Of a stretch of DNA of 64,000 nt, positions 1 to 64,000 are shown one piece after another. The stretch lies in the IMG/VR virus record IMGVR_UViG_3300031867_000048, positions 854 through 64,853 of that record, one strand, 5' to 3'. The position numbers and the translations under genes are program-made. The notes below the pieces were generated by a model. The model saw nothing but the letters and a program-made list of their open reading frames with translations. It made no database searches and was not told the origin of the DNA. Within the stretch, counting starts at the first letter, position 1; each line of letters begins with the position of its first letter. Origin of the DNA: a virus. Its lineage: Duplodnaviria > Caudoviricetes.

Positions 1-410
1 TTGATAGAGTGTGCAACGCCGTCGCTGGTCTGAGTGATAGCCTCAGACAGTGTAGTGATAATCGGGCGCTGACCAATCTCATAGTACTTCACCACAATAC
101 TCTTAGACTTCTGTGTCTTGGTGGATGCGCGCAGAATCTGGTCGATAGGACACGACTCCAGTTTCATCTCAACAATGTGCTTGTTGATCTGCTTCACGTA
201 GTAGTCATAGTCCTTGATCTGCTGCTCCATAATCTCCTGTGACTGAGTCAGTGTATTGGCACCAGCTACGCCAGTACCAGGGCCACCAGCCAAGTCACCA
301 ACAGGGTCTGTGATAGCGGGGTCATCAGCCAAAGCATAGACACTGCCGCTGCCCAGGATGATGGCTGCTGCAGCCACCATGAATCCTAGCCATTTCTTGA
401 ACTTTTTCAT
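1..410 (-). CDS. Major capsid protein, N-terminal part (runs off the left edge; missing from the ORF track)
   Basis: Manual translation from ATG at 410: MKKFKKWLGFMVAAAAIILGSGSVYALADDPAITDP...IVEMKLESCPIDQILRASTKTQKSKSIVVKYYEIGQRPI, open to the edge. Resembles the N-terminus of Bacteroidales prophage capsid proteins (recalled family) and follows the scaffold-like gene. Confidence 0.8.
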   Translation of the reverse strand, partial: MKKFKKWLGFMVAAAAIILGSGSVYALADDPAITDPVGDLAGGPGTGVAGANTLTQSQEIMEQQIKDYDYYVKQINKHIVEMKLESCPIDQILRASTKTQKSKSIVVKYYEIGQRPIITTLSEAITQTSDGVAHSI

Positions 411-466
411 TTCTTTGGTGTTTGTTAATTATTAATGTGAATTATCTCGCTTCCCTTTGTTAAGGC

Positions 467-1270
467 TTAGAAGTTTTTCATCCTGTTAAGCTGGCTCAGG
501 TACGGGTCTTTCTTCTCCTCAGCAAGGTTTGGGGTAGCGGCTCCACCTCCAAGGTCGGACGGCATATCGTCGCGCTTCTTCTGCTGGCGCTTCAACATGT
601 CAATCTTCTCGTTCTTGCCTCGCTTGTAGCCCTTCTGCTCAGCATCAGCCATACGGACATCATAGTCCTTAATCTTAAACAGACGGAGGAAGTCATCCTT
701 CTTCAGGTCGAAGTTGGCAGCACGGTTGATAAGACCGTTCTCCTTGTCATAAATCCAGTCAATCAAGTCTTTAACTTGCTCCTGCTTGTAGCCTGCCTCG
801 GCAATGGCAGCATCCAGCTCTGCATCCTCGGCTTCTATCTTGGCTTGTGCGGCTGCGCGAACTTTCTCCTCTTCCTCTGCGGCATGCTCTGCGTCCTTCT
901 TGGCCTGCTTGCGTTTAGCCTGACCTTCTTTCAGCTTCTTCTTGGCAGTCTCGTTGTTCTCAATCCAGTCCAGGAAGAAATCCATGTGATTGTCAAACAG
1001 ATACTCTGTCAGGTCGAAGTCGCTGCCATCAGCGTTCTTACCACTCATCATACCTGCCATCATCTCTGGGGCAAAGTCATTCTCCTGCATGGCCTTGTTG
1101 AAACGCTCCATCTTCTGCTTGTCAGCATCGTAGGCTTCAAGGTCACCAAGTATTGCACCTCCCAGAGCCTCATCATCATCAACGTTAAGCTCAGGATTGG
1201 CACCCTTATAGCGCTCTGCAAGTCGCTGGCGGCTTGTCAGTTGTGCCTGATTTTTATTTTCTTTTGCCAT
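467..1270 (-). CDS. Putative capsid scaffolding protein
   Basis: 267 aa, charged and coiled-coil-like, immediately upstream of the MCP in the same operon. Confidence 0.6.
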   Translation of the reverse strand: MAKENKNQAQLTSRQRLAERYKGANPELNVDDDEALGGAILGDLEAYDADKQKMERFNKAMQENDFAPEMMAGMMSGKNADGSDFDLTEYLFDNHMDFFLDWIENNETAKKKLKEGQAKRKQAKKDAEHAAEEEEKVRAAAQAKIEAEDAELDAAIAEAGYKQEQVKDLIDWIYDKENGLINRAANFDLKKDDFLRLFKIKDYDVRMADAEQKGYKRGKNEKIDMLKRQQKKRDDMPSDLGGGAATPNLAEEKKDPYLSQLNRMKNF

Positions 1271-1299
1271 ATTTTTATGCGTGAATTGTTAATTTGTCA

Positions 1300-1342
1300 C
1301 AAAAATATAGCATTTTATCGTGGTACTCTTTATAAAATATAT
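1300..1342 (-). promoter_or_regulatory. Late-type promoter for the scaffold/MCP/tail operon
   Basis: Minus strand: TTTTATAA (1337-1330), 22 nt, TATTTTTG (1307-1300). Confidence 0.75.
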
Positions 1343-1402
1343 ATTTTAATTATTATTTTTGCAAACTATTATAGTTGTTAATCATATAAAGTGTAGTTGT
1401 TA

Positions 1403-1828
1403 ATGGCAAGACATAAGGCCTCTGTTTCACAAATCTACATAGAGCGCGACAAAAAAGTTCTACCTGAGCTTATACGTCACGCAAAACATCTGGCGACATA
1501 TCCTACCACAATGAATGCACTATACAAGATTGCTGCTGACCTGCCGACAAAGCGTTTCTACGTAGGCGATGACGCTGCAATATGGTATATGCGAAGACGA
1601 TTATTCTACAAAAAGACACCTAAGTTCATCAATCCGTACAAACAGCGTCTCTTCGAAGCGCTTTTTGAAGAGGTGACGAAAATGATGAATAGCGAGAAAT
1701 ACAAAACGATAGGATGGAAAAATACAACACTCCTGGCACTGTTGCGTCCTGCGCCGTGTGTGGGCCTCACTCCATCCGTCATAGGAATCCTTACCCGCGA
1801 ACCAAACAGGAAGAAGAGAAATGAATAA
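1403..1828 (+). CDS. Conserved hypothetical protein heading the terminase operon (possible DNA-binding regulator)
   Basis: Basic 141-aa ORF with ATG at 1403, divergent from the scaffold gene. Function is inferred only. Confidence 0.6.
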   Translation: MARHKASVSQIYIERDKKVLPELIRHAKHLATYPTTMNALYKIAADLPTKRFYVGDDAAIWYMRRRLFYKKTPKFINPYKQRLFEALFEEVTKMMNSEKYKTIGWKNTTLLALLRPAPCVGLTPSVIGILTREPNRKKRNE

Positions 1829-2303
1829 GTTTCGTATCACACTGATAGTCTGCATCTTCATGGCGGCACTCATTCCGAATACTGACGAGCTGGCGGTGTC
1901 GGACAATAGTCCGCTTTATACCCATTTCGTATATATCCTAGGACATGACGGTTTCCTGCACTACGCCATCAATGCGTGGTCACTGCTGGTCATGCACAAC
2001 CTTTTTCGCTGGTACAGGGTATTGACGGCATACCTCTTTGCCGTGCTTGTCTCGTTTGTTGCACTACCTGCACAACCCATGGTTGGTGCATCGGTCTTTA
2101 CCTGTTTCTTCTTTGGCTTCACGGCTCCCTGGCTGTGGCATAAAGAACGCCTGTTGCTCTGCATGACAGTGGGTCTGCTATTGCTCACCTGTATACTCCC
2201 AGGATTTGCTGGCATCCCTCACGTCGCTGCCTTTGCCTTTGGTGTGTTTTTCTCCTATCTGGAGGCATTTATCCGTAATATCCATCATTATCTCAACAGC
2301 TAG
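1821..2303 (+). CDS. Rhomboid-family intramembrane serine protease
   Basis: Several hydrophobic helices; HxxxxHxxxN (HDGFLHYAIN), catalytic GAS (VGASV) and catalytic His (IPHVAAF..G). Confidence 0.8.
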   Translation: MNKFRITLIVCIFMAALIPNTDELAVSDNSPLYTHFVYILGHDGFLHYAINAWSLLVMHNLFRWYRVLTAYLFAVLVSFVALPAQPMVGASVFTCFFFGFTAPWLWHKERLLLCMTVGLLLLTCILPGFAGIPHVAAFAFGVFFSYLEAFIRNIHHYLNS

Positions 2304-2336
2304 TGTGTTCGCTGGTTTCATCAGCGAGAAAAGAAT

Positions 2337-4541
2337 ATGAGCAAGGAACCTACCATACAGAAGCAGAAAGAGATACCCATGAAGGTGCTGACGCAGATCA
2401 TCCTCATGGATATCCTGCGTATGAAGAAGCTCCTCACTCCCTACAATCCCATCACAGGAAAGGATGCTCCTGGCAAACGTGTACGGGTGGTCTTGGCCGA
2501 CTTCCTGCACGGTCAGGAGATGTGGGTACCTGTGGAGATGTTCCGTAGCAAGTTCTTCCGTGCACTGGTCAACTGTGGAACCATCAGCGACTATGTCTCT
2601 CGCTATCTCTATGATGAAGACCCAGAGAATGCACGCAAGGCTGTGGTACATCGCCTCATCCGTCTGCGCTGCCGTCATGACTTCTACTTCTTTGCAGGCG
2701 CGTATGCACGTATAAAGAATAAGGAGGGTGGCGAGGATATTCCTTTCTACCTGCGTCCTGCTCAGGTGAAGCTGTGCATGGTCTTTGAGAAGCTGCGTCT
2801 GGAAGGAAAGTCCATACGTGTCATTCTCTTGAAGTGTCGCCAGTGGGGTGGTTCCACCCTGACGGATATCTACATGGCGTGGATTATGCTCTTCTGGAAG
2901 ACTCACTGGAACTGCAACATCGTGGGTCACCAGTCTACGTCGGCCATCAACGTGTTCAACATGTACGAGCGCCTGATTAATGCACTGCCAGGATGGTTGT
3001 TCTTTGATATCGGGGAACCAATGCCTGAGGATTTCAAGAAAATCAAGGGCGACAAGAATCCGAATATCAAGTATCTGGCTCCTCGCAACTGCATGATACA
3101 GACTGGCTCAGCACTCAATCCTGAGTCGGCACGTTCCTCTGACGTGGCCATGGCCCATATCACAGAGGAAGCGTTCTTCCCGAATACAGAGAAGTGGACT
3201 CCTGCTCAGGTGGTGAAGTCAGTGGTGTCACCTATCGGCAACCAGCCCTACACCTTTATTGTCCGTGAGTCCACACCGAATGGCATGGAGAATGAGTACC
3301 ATGACGAATGGGTGCGTGCCAACAGCAAGGATAAAGAGGGAAAACCGCTGTCATCCTACCTGCCAGTCTTCGTGGCGTGGTTTGAGATTGAGTCATACAT
3401 CAAGCCTTTCAAGGATGACGATGAACGCGCAGACTTCGCCATCTGGCTCTGGCGCCATCGCAAAGATGATACGGGCTATGGTGCTTACTTCTGGCATCTG
3501 TATGAGATAGGCGCTTCGCTGGAGGGTATCAACTGGTACATTGAGAAGCTGAAAGACTACGCCTCTATCGAGGATATGCAACAGGAATATCCGTCGGATG
3601 CTATCGAGGCGTTCAAATACTCAGGTAAGGCAGTCTTCGACATTTATAAGGTGGAACAGCTGCGTGCCGACTGCTGCGATCCTATCTTCATCGGCGACAT
3701 CGAAGGTGACAGCTACGACCCCACCAAGGAGGCTATCGCTCCCAGTGTGTCTGGCGGTTCCGTCCCCAGAACCAAGAAGTACGAGAAGTACGCCTGCATG
3801 CAAAACCTCAGACTGGTACAACAGCCGAATGGATTCCTGCGGGTGTGGGACTACCCGGACTTCTCAGAGACTGTCAAGCATCGCTACCTGATAGCAGTGG
3901 ATATCGGTGGCTCCCACAAAACTTCCGACTGGTCAAGCATCGTAGTCTTTGACCGCTACGATGTCATGTACGGCGGCTATCCTGCCGTGGTAGCAGAGTG
4001 GCATGGTCACTGTAATCCAGACCAGCTGGCTATGAAGTGTGCTCAGCTGGCCCACTTCTATCAGGATGCTTTCCTAGTGGTGGAGAATAACACTGCCTAC
4101 TCAAAGATGAATGATACTGACGGCGATGTGTCTGAGCTGTTCTTCCCTATCCTTGTGCCACTGTATGACAATCTCTACAACAGCAATCACTCCAAGAAGC
4201 TGAAGCATCGCCAGAAGGAAATGACGTGGGGTTTCAATACCAATACCGCTACCAAGGTGGCCATCGTCCAGAACCTTGTCAGTATCATCCGTGACCGTAA
4301 GTACCTGGAACGTGAAGAAGAGTGTCTGAACGAATATGCCTACTACATGCAATATCCCAATGGTAAGTACGGCAACGTGCCAGGAAAGCATGATGACCGT
4401 GTCATGTCCCGTGGCATTGGCCTGCTCGTAGAGAAAGAAATGCCACTACCAGAAATCGTAGTCCAAAAGACTGCCGAAGAGGTGGCCCGTGAAAAGCTAC
4501 GTAAGAAGAAACCTGTCGCTCCAGAACTTATTAACGTATAA
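2337..4541 (+). CDS. terL: Terminase large subunit
   Basis: LLKCRQWGGST Walker A, AHITEEAF Walker B, VRESTPNG, nuclease IAVDIGG, VVENN and KHDDRVM motifs. Confidence 0.93.
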   Translation: MSKEPTIQKQKEIPMKVLTQIILMDILRMKKLLTPYNPITGKDAPGKRVRVVLADFLHGQEMWVPVEMFRSKFFRALVNCGTISDYVSRYLYDEDPENARKAVVHRLIRLRCRHDFYFFAGAYARIKNKEGGEDIPFYLRPAQVKLCMVFEKLRLEGKSIRVILLKCRQWGGSTLTDIYMAWIMLFWKTHWNCNIVGHQSTSAINVFNMYERLINALPGWLFFDIGEPMPEDFKKIKGDKNPNIKYLAPRNCMIQTGSALNPESARSSDVAMAHITEEAFFPNTEKWTPAQVVKSVVSPIGNQPYTFIVRESTPNGMENEYHDEWVRANSKDKEGKPLSSYLPVFVAWFEIESYIKPFKDDDERADFAIWLWRHRKDDTGYGAYFWHLYEIGASLEGINWYIEKLKDYASIEDMQQEYPSDAIEAFKYSGKAVFDIYKVEQLRADCCDPIFIGDIEGDSYDPTKEAIAPSVSGGSVPRTKKYEKYACMQNLRLVQQPNGFLRVWDYPDFSETVKHRYLIAVDIGGSHKTSDWSSIVVFDRYDVMYGGYPAVVAEWHGHCNPDQLAMKCAQLAHFYQDAFLVVENNTAYSKMNDTDGDVSELFFPILVPLYDNLYNSNHSKKLKHRQKEMTWGFNTNTATKVAIVQNLVSIIRDRKYLEREEECLNEYAYYMQYPNGKYGNVPGKHDDRVMSRGIGLLVEKEMPLPEIVVQKTAEEVAREKLRKKKPVAPELINV
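3746..3770 (+). repeat. Footed hairpin element inside terL
   Basis: TGTG-TCTGGCG-GTTCCGT-CCCCAGA. Confidence 0.65.
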
Positions 4542-4545
4542 CAAT

Positions 4546-5031
4546 ATGAAAAAATCTATCAAACATTCCATCCTCAACATCCTGTTCGCATGCTACGAAC
4601 CAGTGATCACCCGTATTGAGAAGTTTCGTGCTACGATGATGTGGCGCGACGGTGTCAAACAATGCATTAAGATGTACAAAGAACTGGCATCGCCTCGCGT
4701 CTACCTGTTCTACGACCAGAAGCATATGGTATGGGCACCGATGACCTACGAACCCAACAAAGGTCTCAAACCGTCACTGCGCATACTCCGTCGCATGGGC
4801 AAGGCCCGTGGCGTGGCAAAGATACAGGGTGTAGAAGGAATGAAAGAGTATAGCTTCTACTATACTCCTTCGAAGTGGGGTGCTCTTGGTTGTGACGAAG
4901 ACAACCGTGTGCGCACTGAAAAGCTAGCAAAGTGGATTGCGTACTACATGACGCACCTGTCAGAACCTATGCGGAAGTGCCAGGCGTTCCGATCGTCGGC
5001 ATCAGGCTCCCACCGTCGCCAGAATTACTAA
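4546..5031 (+). CDS. Hypothetical protein
   Basis: ATG 5 nt after the terL stop; basic 161-aa ORF. Confidence 0.65.
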   Translation: MKKSIKHSILNILFACYEPVITRIEKFRATMMWRDGVKQCIKMYKELASPRVYLFYDQKHMVWAPMTYEPNKGLKPSLRILRRMGKARGVAKIQGVEGMKEYSFYYTPSKWGALGCDEDNRVRTEKLAKWIAYYMTHLSEPMRKCQAFRSSASGSHRRQNY

Positions 5032-7024
5032 TCGTATCGGAACCATTCTGTCGGCTGGCAACACCTGGGGCCGTTCCTGTCGGGGCGGCTCCGGCCTGCG
5101 CCTGCATCTGTGCCAGCTGCATTTTCTCCTGATGGTGCTCCTCGGCCATGCGCTTCAGGCGGGCAGTATCTCCGAAATCAGCGGCATCCAGCATCTGTAC
5201 AAAGGCTATCTCGTCCTTCTCGTAGGCTTGGTATGCCAGCTCCTTCAGGTCTTCACGGATGACGGCGCTGTTCATATCCAGCGTCAGTGTCAGGTCACAC
5301 TCAATGTCGCCCATGGTCTCAGGATTGAAGTACTTCCAGACATCCTCACCCGTAATCTGTACGCTGCGGTGGCTGTCGTAGAAGCATTGAATAATCCATA
5401 CCTGCTTCTTGGCTACTCTGAGCTTGAAGTTGTTATATGACATCACGTAGTCGGCAATACCTGTGGCGCTGGCTTGCTGCTCTGCCATATAGCGACGGGC
5501 ACTGGTTCCTGCGGTAGGCGCTGCTCCCTGCAAGGCACTCTGCACATTCGACTGCTGCTGTACCAAATCTTTGTCACGATTAAGTATCAGGTCAATACCT
5601 GCTGGCAGACTCTTGTTCTGCAAGGCTTGCGGCGGGTTGCCACCTTTCTTGGAGCTGTAGAGTACTACACCGTCTACCTTGACATAGTTCTCTACCATCT
5701 CTTCGATACCCTGTATCTCACCAAAGGACTCCTCATCAATAGCCAGAGCACCCTTGGCACTGTTCATCAGGATAAAGTCCAGCAGGATATTGTCGTGGTT
5801 GTACTGGCGCTGCTTGTCAATGATACGGTCTTCAAACGAGCGTATCTCTCCTCTCATGCCGTATGCCAGGAATACGTACGGATGGAAATAGAACGAATAA
5901 CCGTCACGCTGCACCTTATACGGGCTGACACCTTCCTCCAGCAGATAGCCATTGGGGGAGATAAAGCGGTAGTACCACATCTCTTCAATGCGTGGCTCAT
6001 ACTCTATCAGCTCCAACTCTTCAACAGGAACGTAATAGGTGGGGTTGCCTGCCTCGTCAAGGATGGGCACGCCGTTGGCATCCCTGCGGATATTATCCAG
6101 ACGGCGCTGGTTGTTCTCAGCATCAATGGCTTTCTTATCTGCCAGCGGACGGAAACCACAGGTAGCATTCAGTCTGTCATGACACCACAATGCTCTGTTA
6201 TACTCCTTGCGCCAGATCTCAATGACTCTGTACTTACCCATCACGGACGGATGCAAGAAGTCCCAGATGCGGTCGCTCTGGTTCATGCCAGTATCGTTAT
6301 GGCCTGTCAGCGGCTGTTCACTGGCTGCTGCGGTATAGATATCTGTCAGCTTCTTCTCATCGCCAGGCTTGCGATAGAACTGTGTCAGCATCTGTGGCCA
6401 TGTGAGGTCGTGGGCCTCAGCGATAAACTCCAGCTCCTCCAGGTCGCTGCTCTGGAAAGGTGGCAGTGCCAGCAGGAACGGGTCAACAGTATCGACATAT
6501 ACATCTTCCCTGCCGTTGCGAAATGCCCAGTGGGGCTTCATACAGGTAAATCCCAAGCTGGTATGGCCTTCAAAACCTTCAGCATGCTTCTCAGACATGT
6601 TGTTGGTATTGTCGTTCTTACGCAAAAACTCACTGAAGATAAGAGCGTAGTCACCTTCATTGGCATCGGTATTCTTCACCTTTGCCGACATGTACTGATT
6701 ACGCATATAACCCTTGATAGACACCATCTTGTCAGTGATAATATCACTGGATAGCGGGGCCATACCCTTCATCTCCATATAGTCATGCACCGTCATAGTC
6801 ATACCATTATAGACCACGGTATCGTTCAACTGCCTACCCATATAGTAGTCAATGTCCCTGATGAACTTCTTGTGCAAGTCATGCATCTGACTATGATAGT
6901 AGTTGGCTATCTGCACCATCTGCAGATATTCCGCGCTGTTATTGAAGCGCTCATGGTTGTAGCCCTTGCTACTATTCACGCCCTGTTCTTCAGTACGTGT
7001 AGCATCGTTATACATTCTGCCCAT
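4967..7024 (-). CDS. Portal protein (P22-like)
   Basis: About 685 aa. DYYMGRQ, IDKQRQYNH.. and NSAKGALAIDE segments and a Q-rich C-terminus typical of podovirus portals; ATG at 7024 downstream of a late promoter. Confidence 0.85.
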   Translation of the reverse strand: MGRMYNDATRTEEQGVNSSKGYNHERFNNSAEYLQMVQIANYYHSQMHDLHKKFIRDIDYYMGRQLNDTVVYNGMTMTVHDYMEMKGMAPLSSDIITDKMVSIKGYMRNQYMSAKVKNTDANEGDYALIFSEFLRKNDNTNNMSEKHAEGFEGHTSLGFTCMKPHWAFRNGREDVYVDTVDPFLLALPPFQSSDLEELEFIAEAHDLTWPQMLTQFYRKPGDEKKLTDIYTAAASEQPLTGHNDTGMNQSDRIWDFLHPSVMGKYRVIEIWRKEYNRALWCHDRLNATCGFRPLADKKAIDAENNQRRLDNIRRDANGVPILDEAGNPTYYVPVEELELIEYEPRIEEMWYYRFISPNGYLLEEGVSPYKVQRDGYSFYFHPYVFLAYGMRGEIRSFEDRIIDKQRQYNHDNILLDFILMNSAKGALAIDEESFGEIQGIEEMVENYVKVDGVVLYSSKKGGNPPQALQNKSLPAGIDLILNRDKDLVQQQSNVQSALQGAAPTAGTSARRYMAEQQASATGIADYVMSYNNFKLRVAKKQVWIIQCFYDSHRSVQITGEDVWKYFNPETMGDIECDLTLTLDMNSAVIREDLKELAYQAYEKDEIAFVQMLDAADFGDTARLKRMAEEHHQEKMQLAQMQAQAGAAPTGTAPGVASRQNGSDTISNSGDGGSLMPTIGTPGTSA

Positions 7025-7048
7025 TGCTTGTCTGATTTTTATTTTGCG

Positions 7049-7139
7049 CAAAAATAAGAAAGATTACATACGTGCGCGTTATAAAATGTATATCATATAT
7101 ATTTTATAATCTTTTATCCGTTCATCATTGCTATCTTTG
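7049..7139. promoter_or_regulatory. Back-to-back pair of late-type promoters
   Basis: Minus: TTTTATAA (7086-7079)-N22-TATTTTTG (7056-7049). Plus: TTTTATAA (7102-7109)-N22-TATCTTTG (7132-7139). Confidence 0.8.
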
Positions 7140-15394: not shown

Positions 15395-18300
15395 CTATTG
15401 AGGTGCCTGTATCTCATCAACATCAGCCTGCGCCTTACGGATGGTCTCACGGATTTTTTTCATAACCTCATCCTCGTTCATACCACTACCTAGGCGTTTC
15501 TTCTCCTTGTTTATATCTCTGGTGGCCTTGTTGATTTTCTTATTGATCAACAGCCAGCTACCATAGCGCTCTTTCATGTCAGCATACTTGTCAGTACCTT
15601 TTGCGGCATCCACCTCCTGCTTGAACTTCTTGGCGGTTCTTCCAAGGTCTTTCAGCTTCTCTTCGGCAATGATGTCTTTTGAGGTGGCCAACATAACATA
15701 TCTGGCATTCTCCTTTTCGTCGACACCATCACCGTCAATGAAGTTGTGCACCTTCTCGATAGCTTCCTCACGGGTCATCGCCTTATACTCGCTATCCTTC
15801 AGGTGTTTCTTCAGCTTGTTCAGCAGGACTTTGCGCTCATCAGGATTCGTGGCGGCATCAAACTTCAATGCGGCGCTGCTTAGGTCTGTCACATCGTCTG
15901 TCATCTCACGGCGCTGTGTGGCCTTGATACTAGAGATGGCGGCATTAAGTGCTTTCTCTGCGTCGATACCGTTCATCACACAAGCATTGTAGGTAGCCTC
16001 GATACCGTTCCAGTCACCATCCATGATGAACGTCTCAAAGTAATCTTTGGCCTTATAGCGGCTAAATCCCTTGCTTGATGGCATAAAGAAGTCTAGCCAC
16101 TTGTATTCCTTGTCGGTCTGTGTAGGCATTCCAAACGGAATGAAGTGACGGGCCATGGCTGACAGAGTGGCAACGGTCTTACCGTACTTCTCTCTCAGCT
16201 CCTTGTTCTCATAGCTACCATTGAAACCTCCGATATTCTGTGCGCCCAGGAAGTCTATCACCGTACCGATATTGGGGTTGGCTTTCGACATCATGCGCTG
16301 TATCAGCGGCGATGGGAACTCTACACCGTGACGTCCAATGAATAACTCTGGGAACTCACGGAACTGCTTACCCCAGCGGACATAGGTCTCTGTACCGTCT
16401 GAGTAGCGTCCTGTAAACAGGTGTGTCTGCTGACCAACGGCATTGCCATACATGGTATAGTCATACCACTTCATACCATCAGGATATGCCAGTTCGTATG
16501 GCGACTTGTAGTTAGGATTGGTCTTGCGCTGCTCGTCGGCCTTGGCTTTCTCGTCCTTCTCATCCATCCAGCGCATCAGTGCGTTGATGGCATTGTAGAA
16601 CATGCCAAACCAGATTACTGCACCTATCAGGTAACAGATCTTGGCATTCCTAGAGCGCAAGCGTCTCAGCTCGTTGCTGGCAACGTCCTTACCAAACATG
16701 CGCTGAATGTTATCCCAGTTGTACTTGATGTACTTTCTGAAACCACCATCGCTGTAGATGCTACCAAAACCAAAGTTAGCAAAGAAGTGACGGTTGGTAG
16801 ATATTAACCAGTCAGGACTCAGGAAGAACCTGCGCATCCACTTCAATGTGGCGGGACTAATATTGATAAGCTCCCAGTACTGCCCACCAAACATATCGTT
16901 GACATACTGGCCTGCCTCATCAAGCATGCGCTCACGGGTGTCTTCGTCAAGTCCCTTGTCTGCCACTCTGCGGTCTACCTGTTTTGCAAGCTCCTTGAAA
17001 GCGCACAGCTTCAAACCGTCGTGTAGGTAGTTCCATAGCACGGTGTCAAAACCTTGATTTATCCAGTCCATAAAGATGGCTGCCGGACTACCAACAGTAC
17101 CTGCTGCTTTCTTCCATGCGGCATCATCCATCTGCAACCCCTTGAAGAACTCGCGCATCTTCTTAGTGATAGCATTGACATCGGCTGCTGCATAGTCCTC
17201 AGTGGCCCCCAACTGTACCAGATGCTTGGCGGCTAACTGGAAGTCCTCAGGATGGGTGTAGGCAGGCAGTGCGTTTCCTTTTATGCTGTCAACAATAATG
17301 TACTTAGCCAGATGTTTCAATGCATCGACGGGACCATTCTGTGCGATATCCACCTCCCACAATGCGAGTGCGTGGAAACCACTCAGTGCCAGTTGTATCT
17401 TCTTGGCGGTGCTACTGACAATGTCATAGCCCTTACCGATATTGCTCAGCCACTGTGCGGCATCAGGTGTACGCATCGTACCAAAGATGTTGGCAAAGCG
17501 CTTTTGGATATGTTTCAGCACATACACATCACCTACTCCTGGCACATAGTACTGGGCATACTTGTCACGCAACAGTCCGTCGGGCTTGTCAGTCATCAGC
17601 AACGGCAGGATGGCTTTCACCTCTCCCTCGTCATTCATCTCCTGGACTACCACAAACTTCAGATCGTCCAAGAAGTGACTGTTGGCAACGGCCTCGTTGT
17701 TCTGACGGCTGTAGTGCGCTATCATGTCGGAAATGTCAGTGTACTTAGGAACCAGACCTATGCTGATACCATCCATGTAGGTATCAATCTCACGGTGGCG
17801 CATGTTAGGCGACTTGGTGCGCTGGCGGTTCTCAATATACTGCTCCCATGCTTTTGGGTCGCTCTTCTCCTTATCCCAGACGTGGTTGACATAACCATCG
17901 TCAATGAAACCTGCATCACCTCTCAGGCCAGCATCCTCCAGCACCTGATAGAACTCGTCGTACCATGCCTTGATATGCTCCATGAGCTGCTGCACCTCAG
18001 GCTGTCCTTGGTACTTCTCAGCCCACTCAGGCATCACATCGCCACGACCTGTCACGCTGGCGGTATTCAGCAGACTGCGTATCTGCATGATGTCATCGGC
18101 AAACAGTTTGTTATAGCCTCCCTTGTTCTGGTTCAGCTGGTTCAGCTTCTCTGCAAGCCTTGCAGCGGCCTCGCGGTATGCCTGCTGTGCGTCACCTGTC
18201 GGGTGCTTTTCCTTATAGTCCCAAGCATCGTTGAGTGCTTTCAGCTCGTCCTCAATGGCATCCATGTTGTAGTAGTCAATGAAGGTGTGTGCTTTCTGCA

Positions 18301-21300
18301 CGGCTTCACTCTTATTGACCTCCATCACGGCATTCTCACGCTCTGCCTCCAAGTTCTCCCTGCGACGGTCTGCCTCTATCAGGAATGGCAATGCGGCTCT
18401 CAGCTCTTTACCTGTTGCATCAGGTATCCTTGCTGCCAACTCCTTAGCTACGGCATCACTCTTCTTCACAAAGTCATATACCCAGATAGCATCCTCAGCG
18501 TTGGCACTCTCAAAGTCCTTGCGTCTCTCAATGACTGCCAGCTTAGCCATACGCTTGGCTCCCTCTTCGTCAATCTCAAAACCTTCGGCATCAGCGAGGT
18601 CTTTCTCTGCCAGATACTGGGCCTCCTGCTCAGCATCGGTAAAGGTGGGCTGTGGTTCTACAGTTCCCTCATAGATGCGCTGGTCAACGCTCATCTCCTC
18701 TTGCAGGTCGTAGCGTTCTCTCCATGCGGTATAGGCGGCACGGTAGTCCTCGTTGGCACGTCTCAGATAGTCCATCAGCTTAGGCGCTGTTGACCACATA
18801 TCCTTGTCAGACTCGTACTGTGCCACTCTGACAGCATACTCCTGTGGGGTCTCACCGTCCTGTCGCTTCGGGAAAGCACCTAGTCCGTCGGTTCCACTGA
18901 CTCCATTGTCATCCATCCACTCCTGCAGGGCCTGCTTATAGTCAGCCTCGGCTCTTTCGTGGAAGTCCTCTTCCTTGGGTTCTGGGTCGCCATTCTCCTT
19001 GGCCATACGACGAGCTTCACGCCACTTCTCCCACTCCTTCAGGCGCTGGAAGTACTGTGCCATGCTCTCGCCTTTCTTCTGGCGGGGCTTGCCATTCACG
19101 CTACGCATGATGTCATGGTTACTTGCCTGTGCGGAAAGGTTTGCCCTTTCCGTTTCGCTCATCTTGTCCCACTTCTTCAGCGCTGCACCCGTCTTGACAA
19201 TGTAGTATGCAAGGTCTTTGTCGTTCAGCAGTCCACGTACCTTTGCACCCAACTTATTCAGCAGGGCTATCAGATAGTGCTTCACCTTAGTCCACAAGTC
19301 AAACTCGTCGGCTGTCTTGGGGCCTTCCTCGGCAATGTCAGCCAGTATCTCCTGTGCTGCCTTACTGTAGCGTGCACCATCCATCCACTCTGAGTCTATC
19401 TCGTCGGCCTTGTCAAGGATACGCTTGCGCACATTGTTCTTAGCACTGCGATATACAAACGTACCAAACTTGTTTACCTCATCCTGACCACCCAACAGAT
19501 CTACCAGACCTTCATGACCAAGCTTTTCATGGAAAACGGTACGGACAGCGTCATTGGCATCTTCGATATTATCAAGCAACAGTGTTACGGTATGAGTGTT
19601 GGGGTCGTAGATACCCTTGGTACCTGCTTCTATCTCAGCTTTCAGCTTAGCATCGGCATCAGCAGATGTCACGGCATTGACCTTTACGCCTCCCAGTGCT
19701 TCACCTGCAGCCTCAGCAACATCGGCAAAACCAGTAGTGTCATGTGCTGCAAGCTTCTTACCCTTAGAACGCATGATGTCATGCTCATCTTTCCATTCCT
19801 TATACGCTTCCTGACAGTCCTTACCCATACCCTTGTGTGGCGGCAATATCTTCATGCCTCTCTCAGCGAGTATTGGCAACAGCTTCGGTGGTATGATGTC
19901 GAAGTGGATACCATCGGTACCCTCAAACTCCTTCACCCAATCATCGGCAACCTCTTCCCAGGGAACCATGCGGACGGGCTTATCCCAGCGGCTCAGTATC
20001 AGGTATTCACCCTGCGTACCCCACTTATGCTTACCAACAGGCTTAGCGGCCTTGTCAGCGTGGTACTCACCATTCAGCTCACTCTTCGGATACTCCGTCT
20101 CTACATAGATTAGGTTCGGGCGCTCCCATGCCTGCTTGAACTGCTTATTGACCTTGTTAGGACGGATATGGATATACGGATTGTAGTCCACACCACCTAC
20201 GGGCTTGCCATCAGGCTTGATAAGGTCTATCTTACCTTGCTCGTTAGCCAGCTCAGGATGCTCGTCGCTACGCTCCCACTTACCATACTCAAACGGTGTG
20301 GTAGCCTTCTTACCCTCGCCTTTTTTACCCAGACGGTTAGCCATCGGACTACCCAGCGTGCCGTCCTCGTTGGCTACCACATTCCTGTAGCCAACCTCCT
20401 TCGGTTCCTTATCCAAACGCTTTACGGTCTCAGGGTCATCCTCGATATGGAACATAAGTTCTGCACGCTTCTTGATTTTCAGGTCATCAACATTATATAT
20501 AATATAGGTGGTGCCATCGCTGCCTTTGACCTTAGATCCGACATAACCTAATTCAGAGAATATCTTAGAGACGTCTTCTGATGGAAGAAACTGCTCCATG
20601 ACACCCCTTGCGGCATCACCAGTACCCTCATTAGAGTCTACGATTTTCCACTCATAGTCAATGATGTCGCGGTTCTTCTTCCAGTATTCAGCCTCATCAC
20701 CGCTGTTTATTCTTTCAAAGAAGGCTTTCTTAATATCTTCCTTTTGTTTCTTGGTGAGCTTCTTGTCAAGGTCAAAATAGTTCTTACCAGTATCATCTGG
20801 AATTTCTACCTCATAGACCTGCTTAGCAGGCTGCTCTACAATCTCTTCTTGGAAACCGAGAGTGCCAGGATGCTCTTTCTCCTGAAGCAAATAGTCCATG
20901 GCCTGCTCTGCATTGCTCTTGCCAGCATCAGGAAGAGACCCAAACGGGTTTTTGTCTCTGTGTCTGTTCAGTATTTCAATGGTATGCTCACAGGCTTTGA
21001 TAGCCTCGTCAACATTGTTGTCGGCTTTCTTCAGATATTCGTTAGCCCTGACCAAAGCTGGATCGTGTACTATCTCACCATTAACAGTATAGCCCATTTT
21101 CTGGATAACATTTCTGCGTCTGTCAGAAGACACCTTGGCGTAGTAGCGGGCTGTGCCCTCAGAAGAAGTTACATAAATGCCATGACCAGATACGGCCTGT
21201 CCTTCACCAGAACCGACTTTTGAAAGGTCAAACTTATCAAAGATGGCGCTGCTGCCATGATAGCCTAACATGGCATTGGCATCGTCGTACGGGTCTGCCA

Positions 21301-24300
21301 CCTTCATCACTTTTTCAAAGTCCTGATTAACCAGGTCTCTGATAGGCATGCGGATAATGGCATCCAGACTCGTCCAATCGTCACCAATGGTTTTGGTATG
21401 CTTGCCAAACAGCCTCAGCACAGCCTCCCAGAACTTTCTCAGGGCATTCTTCACCTCATTGATAATGCTCTTCGGAGTATTCTTCTTAAAGGCTGCTTTC
21501 ATGAACTCATCCTCTCCAGCTGCACCGGACAGACGGGCGTGTACCTCTGAAGCCATACGGTTCTCGTCGTTCCAGATGTTGCGGTAGTTAGGATTGCTGG
21601 CCACCTCTTCCCACATAGCGGTCTTCTTCATGGCGGCAACAAGCTTTTGCCACAAATCAGGATGCTCCTTCATGCACCAGTTATCCCAAAGGTGGGTAGT
21701 CTCATGCAACGGCGTGTTGGGGTTCAGACCGTCCTTTGTCAGGTACACCTGCTTACCATCACTCCATCCCAGCAACTTTTTACCCTCCTTCTGGAACATC
21801 GGCTGACCCTGCATGACAGACTCCCTCATTTCAGGAGTAACGTCGATGCTCCACATGGTAACGCCATCGTTTTCAAGTGCTGGCAGGTCAATCTTCTCTA
21901 CCTTGACACCCCACTTCTTACCATACTTATTCATGAAGCGTGGAAGCATCTCATCATAGAAGCCTTTCATGCCCTCACCACCAATGCGTAAACCGTCGCC
22001 ACTGATTTCGGCGGTTCCGTCTGGATGTTCATCGGCCTCCTTTATGATACGGGCACCAAGGTCTTTGCCAAAGTTCTGAAGTATCTGCTCTTTTGTCAAT
22101 AAGCCTTCCATGCCTTGCTCATGAATATAGCCACCTCTCTTATCCTTGACAAATACATCGTACTGCTCAGGAATGACTTCACCAGTCATGGGGTCACTGT
22201 GCGGATAGGCATTGATGCTATCAATGACACCTCCAAGGTCGTAGCGGTCTGCCTGCTGGTCACCAGTAGTCCAGGCCACCTTATCGTAGCCGTTCTCGGC
22301 TGCGTATCTCAGCATGCGCTTCATAGCCAGTTCATGCCAGTTCTTATCAAATGGGGCATCAGGAATATCTGAACCGCTAAACGGACCATATCCGTTTTCT
22401 TGCAGATATTTATTATAGTCTACTCTAACCTGCATAGTCTTATTGAAAAGATCGCCCATTTTCGACCTCTCTTCTTCTGTAAGACCATAACTGATATCAT
22501 CACGACCATACTTCTTACGAAGCTCAGAAGAATAGTTGTGGTATTCTTCATTGGCTTTGTCGTATGCCATCTTTTCAGGAGCATCGGCTGGCGGGTCTAC
22601 TCGATACCCTTTATCTCTACCCTCCTGATGACGCTTTGACTGTATCTCGTCAATGACCAGCACCTTCTTCTTTCCTTCGTCGAAAGTTTTGCTGTACTCA
22701 TCTTCCAGACGCTGCATTTCTGCATGTTCCTCGTCGGTCATCTTTGTAGACAGTTCCAACGGGTCATCACCTGTAGCATACTTCTCAACTAGTGAGTCGT
22801 AGTAGGTATCCAAAGCTTTCTTAGCGGCTTGGTGATTTGCACTCATACCGTGTTCTATCTCGGTATCACCAAAGCGTACCCAGGCAACAGCACGGCCTCC
22901 TCCAGCATCTCCAAAGTGTATCTCGTCACTTTCGTTCCATGGTTCTATGGTGGGAACTGTCAAAGCTATTTCACGCTTGTTATCTAGGCCATTGGTGGTA
23001 TAGGCCATACGTGTTCCGTTTATTGGGTTGTCGATATCAACCTCTACACCTAGCATCTTGGCTGCATCTTGAAGGTATCTAGGATTACGTACTACCAGAT
23101 TTTCTGTGTCACGCGTAGCAAAATAGGTAATAAAGTCGCTGCCATATTCCTCACGCAACTTTTCAAAAGCTGCATTCTTGGCCTGTGAAGGACTGTCAGC
23201 TTCCTTCCTTGCTTCATGATACAACTCACTCCAGCGCTTGTTAAGAGCTTCCATTGGCTCCCGCATGGCCTTTGGCAAACTGCTTACTGATAAAGAGTCG
23301 TAGTCTTCATCTTTCCGGTCTCTCTTGATGTTGCTGTAGTTAACATCTTCTACCTGTATCTGGTTCTTACGGATATAGTCCAGGAGATCTTGCTTGGTGA
23401 CGCTACCTTTCTGGTCCTTCAGCCAGTCAGAGAGTCCCAGCCACTTATCTTCGCCAGCTTTCAGACCGCCATTCTTCTGTAGCATGGCCAGCCACTGCTC
23501 AGGGGTAGCTTTCTCCTGTTTGATAGCCTCAACAGCACTCAGTGCATTACTGATAAAGATAGGTGCCGCTGTGCTCGTAGCGTTATCTGCGGGTTCATCA
23601 CCCCACATGAAGGAAATAGTCTGCACTATCTTGGCATCGTCCTCGTTAAAGATGACATAGTTGGTAGCACCATTGCCACCTCCCCAGATGGTGCCAGCAG
23701 GATACTTCACACCGACAAAGCCTAAGCTGTTCATCAGCTTGCTAACTCTCTCAGCATCTTTCACCCTGCCACCAAAGGCCATCAACAATCTGTCGTGTAT
23801 CTCCTTGTAGGCAAACTGCTCGCGCTCTATCATGTCAGCCAGCGACTCCCAGCCATTCTTGTAGTTGGTATAGATGAAACTCTGCTTTGGCTCACCATCC
23901 AGCTGACGGACAGCATCGGCAATCTTCTTGCGCAACGGTTTCTTGATGGTTACCATCCAATCAAGATAGTTGTCGCCAGTGTCTTCTGGGATTTCCACCT
24001 TGTAGAGAAGTCTCTTATCTGTCAGATCTGCGTCGCGTACCTTAAAGTCGGACTTCTTGGAGTTCTTCAGGATATTCAGCACTTCTTGCCAGGTATCCTT
24101 CATATCTTGCTCTTCGGCATAATCCATCAAGCGCTCTACAAAAGTAACAGCCTTTCGGATGGTTCCCTCACTATTCAGCGTATCGTATGCCAGACGGAGT
24201 GGGTCAAGCTTGCTCTGGTCAAGGTCAATCTTCTCGCCTTTGTACAATACTTCCTTACCGTTATATCCAGGAGTCTCATCGTTGTATTTTCTCTTGGCTA

Positions 24301-35866: not shown

Positions 35867-36403
35867 TTACCATGTCATTCCTGTTTTACCTATCTTGCCA
35901 CCAAAGTCCAGACCACCTGCGGCCTGCGCCAATCCACCAAATGCGGCCTGCGTTGCTTGTGCCTTGGCCTGTGCTGCACCTTGGATGGCGTTGGCTTTAT
36001 ACTGTGTGAAGGCATTGAGCGTCTGGTCGGCATTCTGATAAACATTTTCCTTCTGTGCTTCATGCTGTGTGGCCTGCTGCTGCAACATGTTACCAACAGC
36101 CTCTGTAGCCTGCTGCTTAGCCAGAGCCTCACTCTCGTCCGTACCACCAGTAACAATATTAGTAGCACGGCTGCGCTTACCCTGTTCTGCCAGCACTTTC
36201 TGGGCGTTAGTCACAGCTGCTTGGTTACCTGCTGAGGCGTTGGGGTCTTGATAATACACAGCGTCACGGTGTGCCTTGACTTCCGACATACGCTGGTCGT
36301 AGGCTTTCTGCATCTGTGCATAGCCATCTGCCAGTGCGTTACCTGCCATGCTGCCACCAATAGCACCTGCTGCGGCACCTAATAATCCACCTATTAATCC
36401 CAT
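35867..36403 (-). CDS. Putative DNA-transfer/ejection protein
   Basis: MGLIGGLLGAAAGAIGG N-terminus, Q/A-rich helical body, first gene of the operon. Confidence 0.6.
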   Translation of the reverse strand: MGLIGGLLGAAAGAIGGSMAGNALADGYAQMQKAYDQRMSEVKAHRDAVYYQDPNASAGNQAAVTNAQKVLAEQGKRSRATNIVTGGTDESEALAKQQATEAVGNMLQQQATQHEAQKENVYQNADQTLNAFTQYKANAIQGAAQAKAQATQAAFGGLAQAAGGLDFGGKIGKTGMTW

Positions 36404-36414
36404 AATGATATACT

Positions 36415-36468
36415 TTTTATAATTATTGGGCAAAAATAATCTATTATCTTTGTACGCGCATTATAAAA
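36415..36468. promoter_or_regulatory. Overlapping divergent late-type promoters
   Basis: Plus: TTTTATAA (36415-22)-N22-TATCTTTG (36445-52). Minus: TTTTATAA (36468-61)-N22-TATTTTTG (36438-31). Confidence 0.8.
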
Positions 36469-38736: not shown

Positions 38737-38809
38737 AAAAAATTGCTTTTGATTTCCGTTTACAAAGGTACAAATTCTTTTTGAACCTCCAACAAAATTA
38801 CTTAGAATT

Positions 38810-39039
38810 TGACGCACAAATGACGCACAAATGTTATAGAAGAGTGGAAACCATCGGAAACCACTTTTTTAAATATCTCTATTTCAAGGCCCTCTCGCCA
38901 TCACCCGTTTCCATTCTGTACCCGTATCAGGAATTCGCCAGGCACCTCTAAACAAACTCTCAGAACCTCGATAAACAAAAGGTTTTGAGAGTTTTCTTTT
39001 TCTGTAAATTCTCATTTTGACGCATTTTTGACGCACATT
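38810..39039. other. attP: core matching a tRNA-Cys 3' end with flanking arm-type repeats
   Basis: Core GAATTCGCCAGGCACCTC (38931-48) resembles the recalled Bacteroidales tRNA-Cys end GAATCCGCCAGGCACCTC; terminator hairpin at 38954-94; TGACGCACAAA x2 (38810-31) and TGACGCATTTT/TGACGCACATT (39018-39). Confidence 0.75.
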
Positions 39040-47011: not shown

Positions 47012-47323
47012 ATGAACGAAGTAATCGGAAAGAAAGTGATTATCCGTGCAAACCGTGCGGGAGTGTTCTTCGGAACATTGAAAGACAAACAGTACACCCC
47101 AGCAGGTGTAGAGGTTAAACTGGAGAATAGCCGTCGCATCTGGTACTGGAAAGGTGCTGCCAGCCTCAGCCAGATGGCAACAGAGGGAGTGAAGGAACCT
47201 GAGAGTTGTAAATTCTCTGTCGTAGTGCCCAGTCACATTGTTGAGCAAGTCATTGAGATCATTCCCTGCAGCGACGAAGCTATCAACTCTATTGAGAACG
47301 TGCGAGTATGGAGAAACCATTAG
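47012..47323 (+). CDS. DUF6948-like protein
   Basis: VIIRANRAGVFFG..SRRIWYWKGAASLSQMATEGV. Confidence 0.8.
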   Translation: MNEVIGKKVIIRANRAGVFFGTLKDKQYTPAGVEVKLENSRRIWYWKGAASLSQMATEGVKEPESCKFSVVVPSHIVEQVIEIIPCSDEAINSIENVRVWRNH

Positions 47324-63472: not shown

Positions 63473-64000
63473 TTAAGCTGCCTGCAGCTCGTCCGTGATA
63501 CCGTCTTCGACGTCAAACTCTGGACGGAAGACGCGGGCGTGGGCGTTGGGGAAGTACAGTGTCCAGCAAGAGAACTCCTCCATGACAACGGCGTTGGCGT
63601 TGCGGATGAAGAGCTTCTTCAGGTCGTACTCCTGGCGCTGCCAGTTACCGAAAATCCACTTCTCCAGATAGCGTGGGTCAAGCATAAATGCACAGCCACT
63701 CATACCCATGTAGTTGAAAGCATCATGACGGTAGATCATAATCTTGGTACCCATAGAGCTGAAGCTTTCAAAGTCGATACCCCAGTTCTGGTAGTTGCTC
63801 TCAGTCTGCATGATGATGCGACGCTTTGACTTCAGGTTGCTCAGGGCCTTGTAGATAAGGTTGTCAACGAACAACAGCTTGGTACGGCTACCATTACCAG
63901 CATCCTGGATGGCCATACGTACGAAGTCGTTCAGCTGCTCCTCAGTGATGACATACTCGTAAACAGTCTTGTCAACCATCTTGGCCTCTGGAGTAGCGTC
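63473..64000 (-). CDS. Major capsid protein, C-terminal part (open to the right edge)
   Basis: ..GNGSRTKLLFV..WGIDFESF..RHDAF..AFMLDPRYL..AVVMEEFSCW..AHAR, typical of the C-terminus of an HK97-fold Bacteroidales MCP. Confidence 0.85.
   Translation of the reverse strand, partial: DATPEAKMVDKTVYEYVITEEQLNDFVRMAIQDAGNGSRTKLLFVDNLIYKALSNLKSKRRIIMQTESNYQNWGIDFESFSSMGTKIMIYRHDAFNYMGMSGCAFMLDPRYLEKWIFGNWQRQEYDLKKLFIRNANAVVMEEFSCWTLYFPNAHARVFRPEFDVEDGITDELQAA

Follow-up and report, generated by a model that had tools for sequence, protein, structure and literature searches.

Organization of the capsid-terminase locus

We analyzed a window of 64,000 nt, which spans positions 854-64853 of a source genome assembled as a single contig of 64,853 bp. 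The two ends share a 129-nt stretch with one mismatch, which leaves 64,724 bp of unique sequence; the assembly is therefore circular or terminally redundant. The virus is a rumen Prevotellaceae phage; a scan of genome contigs matched a single prophage, carried in a rumen Prevotellaceae MAG. A capsid gene and a scaffold-like gene on the minus strand lie opposite a plus-strand module composed of orf143, a rhomboid gene and terL (Table 1).

Table 1. Features of the capsid-terminase locus and other membrane proteins of the genome (window coordinates)
Feature	Coordinates	Strand	Evidence and remarks
Start of capsid body, continuing over the circular junction	1..215	-	PHROG 26635 match (profile positions 11-133 of 482); junction reading
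Spacer, capsid codons 29-65, between leader and capsid body	216..326	-	Acidic, Gly/Pro/Thr-rich; translation; AF2 coil
Leader, capsid codons 1-28	327..410	-	Basic tail, hydrophobic helix, Gly/Ser break, [FY]AxA site; translation; 115-sequence alignment
Scaffold-like protein, 267 aa, just upstream of capsid gene	467..1270	-	Glu/Lys-rich; scaffold-like by position and composition only; PHROG 22323 (function unassigned)
orf143, 143 aa, partner conserved upstream of rhomboid or of terL	1397..1828	+	Stop overlaps rhomboid start by 8 nt
Six-helix rhomboid, 160 aa	1821..2303	+	H47 1959-1961; N51 1971-1973; S91 2091-2093; H134 2220-2222
Large terminase (terL)	2337..4541	+	PHROG 2, 6.5e-21; 34 nt downstream of rhomboid
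P22-like portal protein	4967..7051	-	Pfam P22_portal, 1.9e-27
C-terminal 175 codons of capsid gene	63473..64000	-	Pfam SU10_MCP, 33.8 bits (cut-off 24.1); PHROG 26635 positions 331-470 of 482
Other membrane proteins of the genome	9210-9818; 35867-36433; 39408-39788; 41799-42020; 51467-51751; 55699-56175		

When the junction is read through, the minus-strand ORF that starts at position 410 joins the ORF ending at 63473 to give one protein of 553 aa. PHROG 26635 matches both pieces, and a full-length 553-aa homologue with 98% identity is known. The profile score identifies the product as an SU10-type capsid protein (PF17236), as does synteny, with the scaffold-like gene upstream and the portal and terL genes adjacent; the capsid of one relative (L046) scores 113 bits as SU10 type. 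Contigs from RNA libraries cover positions 1-435 of the window. Parts of positions 436-4600 were uncovered in the RNA run, which is not evidence that they are silent.

The arrangement of these genes is strongly kept. The scaffold-like gene holds its position in every relative, as it does in the cultured phages discussed below. The rhomboid ORF lies 1.41 kb from the start of the capsid gene, and at every rhomboid locus with enough flanking sequence (28/28) a leader-bearing capsid gene lies on the opposite strand at a distance of ~1.4-2 kb. The slot between orf143 and terL, facing the scaffold-capsid pair, is retained across lineages with capsid identity <30%.

The capsid protein carries a conserved membrane-type leader

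The capsid protein begins with four Lys within residues 1-6, followed by an apolar segment from W7 to L19, a GSGS break and the site YALA|DDP. AF2 modeling of the full protein from a shallow alignment gave a pLDDT of only 49, with a low-confidence leader helix at residues 2-19 and coil at residues 20-53. Among 115 homologues, which extend to ~47% identity, A26 and A28 are present in 115/115 sequences, Y/F25 in 114 and D29 in 111; W7, G9, F10 and G22 occur in 112, 112, 114 and 110, respectively. This conservation indicates that the leader is not a chance extension of the ORF. An internal start that would give a leaderless capsid was ruled out, because M61 is found in only 67 of the 115 homologues and no internal start is conserved. 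In the wider family, 105 of 124 full-length representatives carry a leader, as do 37 of 38 IMG/VR lineages. This capsid family comprises 534 clusters at 50% identity and occurs commonly in Bacteroidales of the rumen and human gut, and so nearly universal a membrane-type leader calls for explanation even without a link to the rhomboid.

In this subfamily the leader follows the pattern of a Sec-type signal peptide, with a basic n-region, an apolar h-region and small residues at -1 and -3. Four Lys lie before the leader helix, and the 15 residues after the leader include four Asp and no basic residue. From the positive-inside rule only, the leader is predicted to be N-in/C-out. This topology would place the capsid body on the periplasmic side, at odds with head assembly and DNA packaging. 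A capsid protein has to function in the cytoplasm, which makes a Sec-type signal on it a paradox.

The gene upstream of terL encodes a predicted rhomboid

The rhomboid motifs of the 160-aa protein are G89-A-S91-V, H134 and H47xxxN51. Its AF2 model has a pLDDT of 89.9 and a pTM of 0.85, and the top 38 PDB matches returned by Foldseek are all GlpG or iRhom (probability ~1, TM 0.55-0.70). With Pfam Rhomboid the window protein alone scores 13.4 bits, under the cut-off of 22.6; of 26 relatives, 14 reach E <= 0.1, the best at 5.1e-6. A profile made from the rhomboid alignment found no match among PDB sequences, and hhalign against single-sequence GlpG aligned helix 6 alone.

G89, S91 and H134 are the same in all 26 close and all 20 distant phage homologues, and among 20 phage rhomboids with 14-43% identity the only invariant columns are H42, H47, G89, S91 and H134. 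The helix-2 Asn (N51) is present in at least 90% and is replaced by Cys in the distant lineages L062 and L086. These motifs align with GlpG H150/N154, G199-S201 and H254. The WR motif of the L1 loop is absent: the loop is ~25 aa long, and MAFFT places GlpG W136-R137 on Y33-T34. Some relatives have W-x-R. By motif and by model, then, the phage protein is a predicted rhomboid fold with its catalytic residues intact.

These results agree with the sequence-only reading of this DNA, which had described a minimal 160-aa rhomboid with Ser and His motifs (GASV) directly upstream of terL and a signal-peptide-like capsid N-terminus (basic, hydrophobic, GSGS, A-x-A). Its joining of the 1-410 ORF, as the N-terminus, to the capsid gene at 63473-64000 was likewise borne out.

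The rhomboid occurs only with short-leader capsids

The same reading had proposed that the capsid protein is tethered to the inner membrane and released by the rhomboid, and had suggested co-occurrence of rhomboid and hydrophobic leader as a check. We compared 35 capsid lineages, using leader classes that were defined after the data had been seen, and found that all 24 rhomboid-bearing lineages combine a short leader (apolar span <=34 aa) with a long acidic spacer (>=35 aa; 35-85 aa in all of them). Ten leader-bearing lineages without the rhomboid have leaders of at least 36 aa and spacers of <=32 aa; they fall into two clades, which include two complete genomes that have terL. Leaderless forms, namely one lineage and three chromosomal islands, are also without the rhomboid. 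Thus, among the 35 lineages, the rhomboid occurs only with capsids that have the short leader and long acidic spacer. Independent evolutionary contrasts were concordant in 3 of 3 cases (p = 0.25). The expected co-occurrence held in one direction, in that the rhomboid is never found without the short leader, but not in the other, since two clades keep a leader without the rhomboid.

Two records were set aside. One (L173) has a type-A leader apparently without a rhomboid and was excluded as a fragment or chimera; it also lacks terL, and its sequence departs from that of its relative immediately upstream of the scaffold gene. The other (L163), without a rhomboid, was excluded as a degraded element that adjoins host genes and a transposase.

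The leader-bearing clades and complete genomes without the enzyme would fit a rhomboid that targets some other host or phage membrane protein, such as a holin-like, spanin, exclusion or injection protein. The link to leader type would then reflect shared ancestry, and the leader would be handled independently, for membrane targeting or assembly timing. The genome does encode further membrane proteins (Table 1), the contrasts number just three, and the recognition motif and predicted orientation of the leader are mismatched (see below). However, shared ancestry does not readily explain why the rhomboid keeps its position opposite scaffold and capsid genes at such low capsid identity, nor why every loss of the rhomboid coincides with a remodeled leader. 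A Gly-rich membrane protein of 188 aa, which had been offered as an alternative substrate, occurs whether or not a phage has the rhomboid; lacking a specific link to the enzyme, it was rejected as a rhomboid-specific substrate. We regard a different substrate as rather unlikely.

The leader fits the rhomboid recognition motif in part

Rhomboid recognition motifs have a small residue at P1, a large hydrophobic residue at P4 and a hydrophobic residue at P2', where Asp is deleterious (PMC2941825). In known substrates, which are N-out/C-in, the membrane helix lies on the P' side; a single exception, the type II protein Star, has been reported (PMC2941825). The leader matches two of the three key positions: the conserved A28 and Y/F25 correspond to P1 and P4, and the Gly/Ser break lies beside the site. 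At P2', position 30 is Asp in 87 homologues, Asn in 11, Glu in 10 and Ala in 5 (n = 115). The charges predict N-in/C-out rather than N-out/C-in, and the site follows the helix instead of lying at its outer N-terminal end. Both the predicted orientation and the acidic P2' count against direct cleavage by the rhomboid.

Judged from its residues, the A-x-A site suits host signal peptidase I equally well. Invariant A26 and A28, together with the basic n-region and apolar h-region, form the textbook pattern, and the predicted topology is that of a signal peptide and not of a rhomboid substrate. Cleavage might fall to signal peptidase I or some other enzyme of the host and leave the rhomboid a secondary role, for example ridding the membrane of leader helices left behind in their tens of thousands, in the manner of signal-peptide peptidase; the rhomboid would still co-occur with this leader type. 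Against host cleavage, other rhomboid-bearing lineages have Met, Phe, Leu or Cys at -3, all unusual at a signal peptidase I site, and the leader is conserved far beyond ordinary signal peptides. Export of the capsid body would also be left unexplained, and a leftover N-in/C-out helix would again present the rhomboid with a non-canonical orientation. Host cleavage with a secondary rhomboid appears unlikely.

No classical prohead protease is recognizable

Six-frame searches of the whole 64.8-kb genome for S78, ClpP-like S14 and S49 proteases, a set that stops short of the T4-type S77 family, were empty at E up to 1, and positive-control genomes did match. Nor did any of the 19 ORFs scanned with Pfam and PHROG match a protease, consistent with the earlier remark that no HK97-type or ClpP-type prohead protease can be recognized.

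N-terminal propeptides that face the procapsid interior are common on capsid proteins. The leader could be a hydrophobic assembly element of this kind, similar to a delta domain or targeting peptide, that never enters the membrane, or it could be removed by an unrecognized soluble protease, with the rhomboid unrelated to heads. Signal-peptide predictions on Porphyromonas phage capsids have been put down to prohead-protease cleavage (PMC10367356). Nevertheless, a leader outside the membrane is very improbable, given that no prohead protease was detected in the genome, that a separate scaffold-like gene is present, that an uncharged helix of 22 residues preceded by a +4 tail strongly signals membrane insertion, and that the exclusive association with the rhomboid would go unexplained.

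A possible membrane step in head assembly

We tentatively prefer the reading that the phage rhomboid is dedicated to the capsid leader and either cuts it off or clears it, although the sequence comparisons place its probability somewhat below an even chance. The capsid protein would be made only as a precursor, in which a 28-residue membrane-type helix with a small-x-small site is followed by a flexible acidic spacer of ~35 aa and then by the capsid fold. The leader would insert in the cytoplasmic membrane, and the mini-rhomboid, produced from the late module orf143-rhomboid-terL, would be the dedicated enzyme for it. With a cut at A28|D29, the rhomboid would either remove the leader from the capsid or dispose of a leader that had already been cleaved, and leader-free subunits would then build the head. 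Such a system may serve to tether or withhold subunits until late, or to concentrate them on the membrane as with the T4 prohead.

A stronger form of this proposal would make the rhomboid the capsid-maturation enzyme of a large Bacteroidales phage family, releasing leader-anchored subunits in an orientation foreign to known rhomboid substrates; relatives without the enzyme would have taken a longer leader, which may form a two-helix hairpin, predicted to have its two ends in the cytoplasm. We consider this version possible but doubtful. The tether-and-release idea of the sequence-only reading has thus survived in part: both components are real, conserved and syntenic, the catalytic residues are intact, the short-leader association holds and a classical prohead protease was not found. 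On the other side stand the predicted orientation, the acidic P2', the equal fit of the A-x-A site to host signal peptidase I, the two clades that have a leader without the rhomboid, and the small number of contrasts.

In the prevailing view, tailed-phage heads form from soluble subunits and are matured, where needed, by soluble proteases in the procapsid interior. The pairing of rhomboid and leader hints at an undescribed membrane step in this process. If that is true, passage of a capsid protein through the membrane and the use of an intramembrane protease would constitute a new assembly route, and bacterial-type rhomboids, for most of which no natural substrate is known, would gain one that is clear and abundant, perhaps unusually oriented. 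Apart from two Stenotrophomonas phage reports, the only ones to match rhomboid, terminase and capsid together, a literature search on phage rhomboids and capsids found no description of the pairing.

Comparison with known systems

HK97 gp4 and T4 gp21 are prohead proteases that remove capsid propeptides; they are soluble and act inside the procapsid. T4 head assembly can start on the inner membrane, where the tether is portal-gp40 and not the capsid protein. We propose that in this phage, too, an N-terminal capsid segment must go before the mature head forms, but no such prohead protease was found in its genome.

The phage rhomboid has the six-helix fold of GlpG from E. coli and H. influenzae (MEROPS S54, PF01694; PDB 2IC8, 2NR9, 3ODJ). 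It also shares the Ser-His dyad, formed by the helix-4 GxS motif and the helix-6 His, as well as the HxxxN of helix 2. Its charges predict N-in/C-in, and its active site would thus face the periplasm. In contrast to GlpG, it is just 160 aa long, lacks a cytoplasmic domain, has a very short L1 loop with Y-T for WR and, in this subfamily, carries G-A-S-V for GxSG. Identity is 14-16%, and the gene lies within the packaging operon.

In Providencia stuartii, the dedicated rhomboid AarA trims a short N-terminal extension and thereby activates one abundant protein, TatA (PMC2941825, PMC3712462), much as proposed here, and in both cases P1 is small and P4 large and hydrophobic. TatA is N-out and is cut before its helix, whereas the phage capsid helix precedes the site, is predicted to be N-in and has an acidic P2'. 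The GlyGly-CTERM/rhombosortase system likewise shows co-occurrence of a sorting signal and a specialized rhomboid across genomes, with a Gly/Ser-rich motif beside a membrane helix and a basic tail (PMC3237569, PMC6219818). There, however, the signal is C-terminal on secreted proteins, the relationship is many-to-one and the orientation is canonical; the phage signal is N-terminal and sits on a single cytoplasmic structural protein.

Close parallels are the cultured Bacteroides phages BS-TP4, BKO1-TP3 and BF1-TP2 (PQ571277, PQ571269, PQ571263; PMC12694917), in which orf-rhomboid-terL lies opposite scaffold-capsid. In their capsids a basic tail and a helix lead into a Gly/Ser break and an x-M-A site, after which comes an acidic spacer. 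They differ in capsid identity (34-39%), in having the canonical GLSG in two of the three, and in infecting Bacteroides instead of Prevotellaceae. Two of the three rhomboid genes are already labeled as such in GenBank; that of BKO1-TP3 is labeled "glycoside hydrolase", with a rhomboid structure match in its note only. The source paper mentions neither rhomboid nor leader, and it reports a cultured relative in 31% of the viromes of one study (PMC12694917). With the same module in three cultured phages, the pairing of rhomboid and leader is testable.

Organization of the capsid locus

The source is a single contig of 64,853 bp, and the window comprises its bases 854-64853. Its ends carry a 129-nt repeat with one mismatch, leaving 64,724 bp of unique sequence, and because of this repeat we take the assembly to be circular or terminally redundant. 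When read across the junction, the two terminal pieces form one capsid ORF, as the sequence-only reading had supposed. PHROG 26635 matches both pieces, and Pfam SU10_MCP scores above threshold on the C-terminal piece. The genes are ordered portal (-), orf143-rhomboid-terL-orf180 (+) and scaffold-like gene-capsid (-). A 143-aa protein is kept upstream of the rhomboid in relatives; in those that lack the rhomboid, it directly precedes terL. A search for family matches to this protein found none; possibly it is the small terminase, which would place the rhomboid gene between terS and terL. Because the genome encodes a tyrosine integrase, the phage must be temperate, and a prophage copy of one relative in a rumen Prevotellaceae MAG is consistent with this lifestyle. 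The genome recurs across many studies of bovine and goat gut metagenomes.

Coordinates of features in the window and in records of relatives (L handles)
Feature	Record	Position	Strand	Remark
Capsid gene	window	start 410, exits at base 1, crosses junction, end 63473	-	one 553-aa protein
orf143, 143 aa	window	1397-1828	+	stop overlaps rhomboid start by 8 nt
Rhomboid	window	1821-2303	+	ends 34 nt before terL
Giant ORF, 6,273 aa	window	15395-34216	-	~29% of genome
Gly-rich protein, 188 aa	window	35867-36433	-	
Tyrosine integrase	window	37330-38817	-	
Short-period tandem repeat region	window	47308-48060	+	inner part 47357-47635
Rhomboid, HxxxC	L062	8120-8575	-	
Rhomboid, HxxxC	L086	7785-8252	-	
Capsid mini-island	L185	10001-13632		
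Capsid mini-island	L187	9131-12242		
Capsid mini-island	L186			
Long leader, rhomboid-less	L046, L081, L083, L087, L091, L098, L100, L105, L038, L044			

Elsewhere in the genome, the giant ORF has similar counterparts in cultured relatives, one of them labelled DarB-like antirestriction. In the inner part of the tandem repeat region, one reading frame shows a long run of repeated Met-Ala/Leu-Ala codons, located either within a 250-aa ORF or opposite it.

A conserved leader precedes the capsid body

Capsid residues 1-6 include four Lys and are followed by 22 uncharged residues interrupted by GSGS; the leader ends in YALA, directly before DDP. This anatomy, which had been described from the window alone, is kept among 115 homologues (47-98% identity). 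All of them have A26 and A28, 114 carry Tyr or Phe at position 25 and 111 carry D29, while W7, G9, F10 and G22 are each kept in 110-114. Such conservation at the sequence level is unusual for a signal peptide. The leader is followed by a less conserved acidic spacer of about 35 residues, rich in Gly, Pro and Thr and modeled as coil at low confidence, and the capsid body begins near residue 66. With Met61 in only 67 of the 115 homologues, no internal start is conserved and all capsid product should therefore carry the leader.

Two contigs from a bovine gut metatranscriptome library are identical to the window and cover positions 1-435, which correspond to the 5' part of the capsid gene with the leader codons and 25 nt upstream of the ATG. 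These contigs end inside the 56-nt gap after the scaffold-like gene, and no other metatranscriptome contig matched within the first 4.6 kb of the window. They hint weakly that the leader codons are transcribed.

The 188-aa protein has features that resemble the capsid leader: its basic tail is combined with a hydrophobic helix rich in Gly and a site reading A-L-A|D-G. It is kept whether or not a phage has the rhomboid, and its homologue adjoins terL in the relative L046.

The phage rhomboid retains its catalytic residues

The rhomboid encoded in the window falls below the Pfam Rhomboid threshold, but the profile matches 14 of 26 relatives. Its AF2 model is confident (pLDDT 89.9), and each of the 38 top PDB matches is a GlpG or iRhom structure. 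Alignment with E. coli GlpG places H47/N51 on H150/N154, G89-S91 on G199-S201 and H134 on H254, the last pairing being found independently by hhalign. Across 20 phage rhomboids that share only 14-43% identity, H42, H47, G89, S91 and H134 alone are invariant. This pattern speaks for an active enzyme and against a pseudoprotease. In two distant lineages (L062 and L086), Cys replaces the helix-2 Asn, and GTSG and the helix-6 His are kept.

No match to Pfam S78, ClpP or S49 turned up in any of the six frames of the whole genome, whereas positive controls matched, and Pfam and PHROG scans of 19 ORFs likewise found no protease. Thus, the earlier recognition of a rhomboid beside terL, with no recognizable prohead protease, is borne out.

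Distribution of rhomboid and leader

A capsid protein profile retrieved 534 clusters at 50% identity; among the best 150, the hydrophobic leader is present in 105 of 124 full-length clusters. We collected 182 IMG/VR and phage loci, and an iterated search found the rhomboid in 141. The capsid proteins form 38 lineages at 70% identity, 37 of them with the leader. Lineages with too little flanking sequence and the degraded element L163 were left out; L173, a chimeric or fragmentary member of a rhomboid-bearing lineage, was also set aside. The 35 remaining lineages comprise 24 with the rhomboid, ten with the leader and no rhomboid, and one with neither. None of the ten rhomboid-less records, each searched over its full length, contained a rhomboid (5/5 rhomboid-bearing control records matched); two of the ten are rated complete, and both have terL.

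Leader anatomy separates the two groups cleanly. In rhomboid-bearing lineages the apolar span measures 19-34 aa and the acidic spacer 35-85 aa, whereas in rhomboid-less lineages the span measures 36-52 aa or more and the spacer 20-32 aa. We infer that a 36-52-aa stretch would be long enough for a two-helix hairpin, leaving the capsid body cytoplasmic. The rhomboid state needs three changes on the capsid tree, and all three independent contrasts point in the same direction (p = 0.25, with leader classes defined after the sequences were seen); three contrasts are too few to reach significance.

Bacteroidota chromosomes hold three capsid homologues without a leader, in mini-islands that encode a small ORF, the capsid, a 170-aa ORF and a short P22-type portal (416-452 aa), flanked by host genes. 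No rhomboid was found among the called genes of these three loci and no terminase nearby, although one locus spans only 3.9 kb and shows little. These islands may represent satellites or capsid cassettes that were domesticated.

Possible roles of the rhomboid

Our best reading is that the rhomboid would be dedicated to the capsid leader, because it occurs only with leader-bearing capsids, its position opposite the capsid operon is fixed across very distant lineages, its catalytic site is intact, the leader offers an aromatic P4, an Ala P1 and a flexible Gly/Ser break beside the site, and no other protease was found. That it acts on the leader in some way is plausible, if somewhat short of probable. 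The original proposal was more specific: a capsid tethered to the membrane by its leader and freed by the rhomboid in place of a maturation protease. The association is real, but the mechanism is unproven and partly contrary to known rules. Rhomboids require a small residue at P1, a large hydrophobic one at P4 and a hydrophobic one at P2', and Asp is deleterious (Strisovsky et al., PMC2941825). Known substrates also have the N-out/C-in orientation; a single exception has been reported, the type II protein Star, perhaps explained by its site looping back into the active site (PMC2941825). The capsid leader has an acidic P2' and a helix ahead of the site, and its charges predict an N-in/C-out orientation, features that speak against direct cleavage. 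An N-in/C-out leader would also carry the capsid body out of the cytoplasm, to a location that cannot be its final one.

A rhomboid substrate unrelated to the leader is rather unlikely. Signal peptidase could instead cut the leader, with a clearing role for the rhomboid: the A-x-A site is just as compatible with host signal peptidase I, but position -3 is Met, Phe or Cys in other lineages, and we consider this account doubtful. Given the long uncharged stretch, a leader that never enters the membrane is improbable.

Comparison with known systems

Judged by charge, both termini of the phage rhomboid lie inside together with loops 2 and 4, and its acidic L1 loop lies outside. GlpG has the same charge-based topology, so the phage active site should open to the periplasm; the L1 WR motif of GlpG is missing from the phage protein in the alignment. 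Our literature search found no paper linking a phage rhomboid to a capsid protein. A Porphyromonas phage study briefly mentions that signal peptides were predicted on capsid proteins, and it assumed that prohead proteases take them off (PMC10367356). The same module and leader are present in three cultured temperate Bacteroides phages, BF1-TP2 (PQ571263), BS-TP4 (PQ571277) and BKO1-TP3 (PQ571269), whose description mentions neither (PMC12694917). GenBank carries an automatic rhomboid label on the gene in two of the three, and the BKO1-TP3 product is labelled "glycoside hydrolase", with the rhomboid match appearing only in its note.
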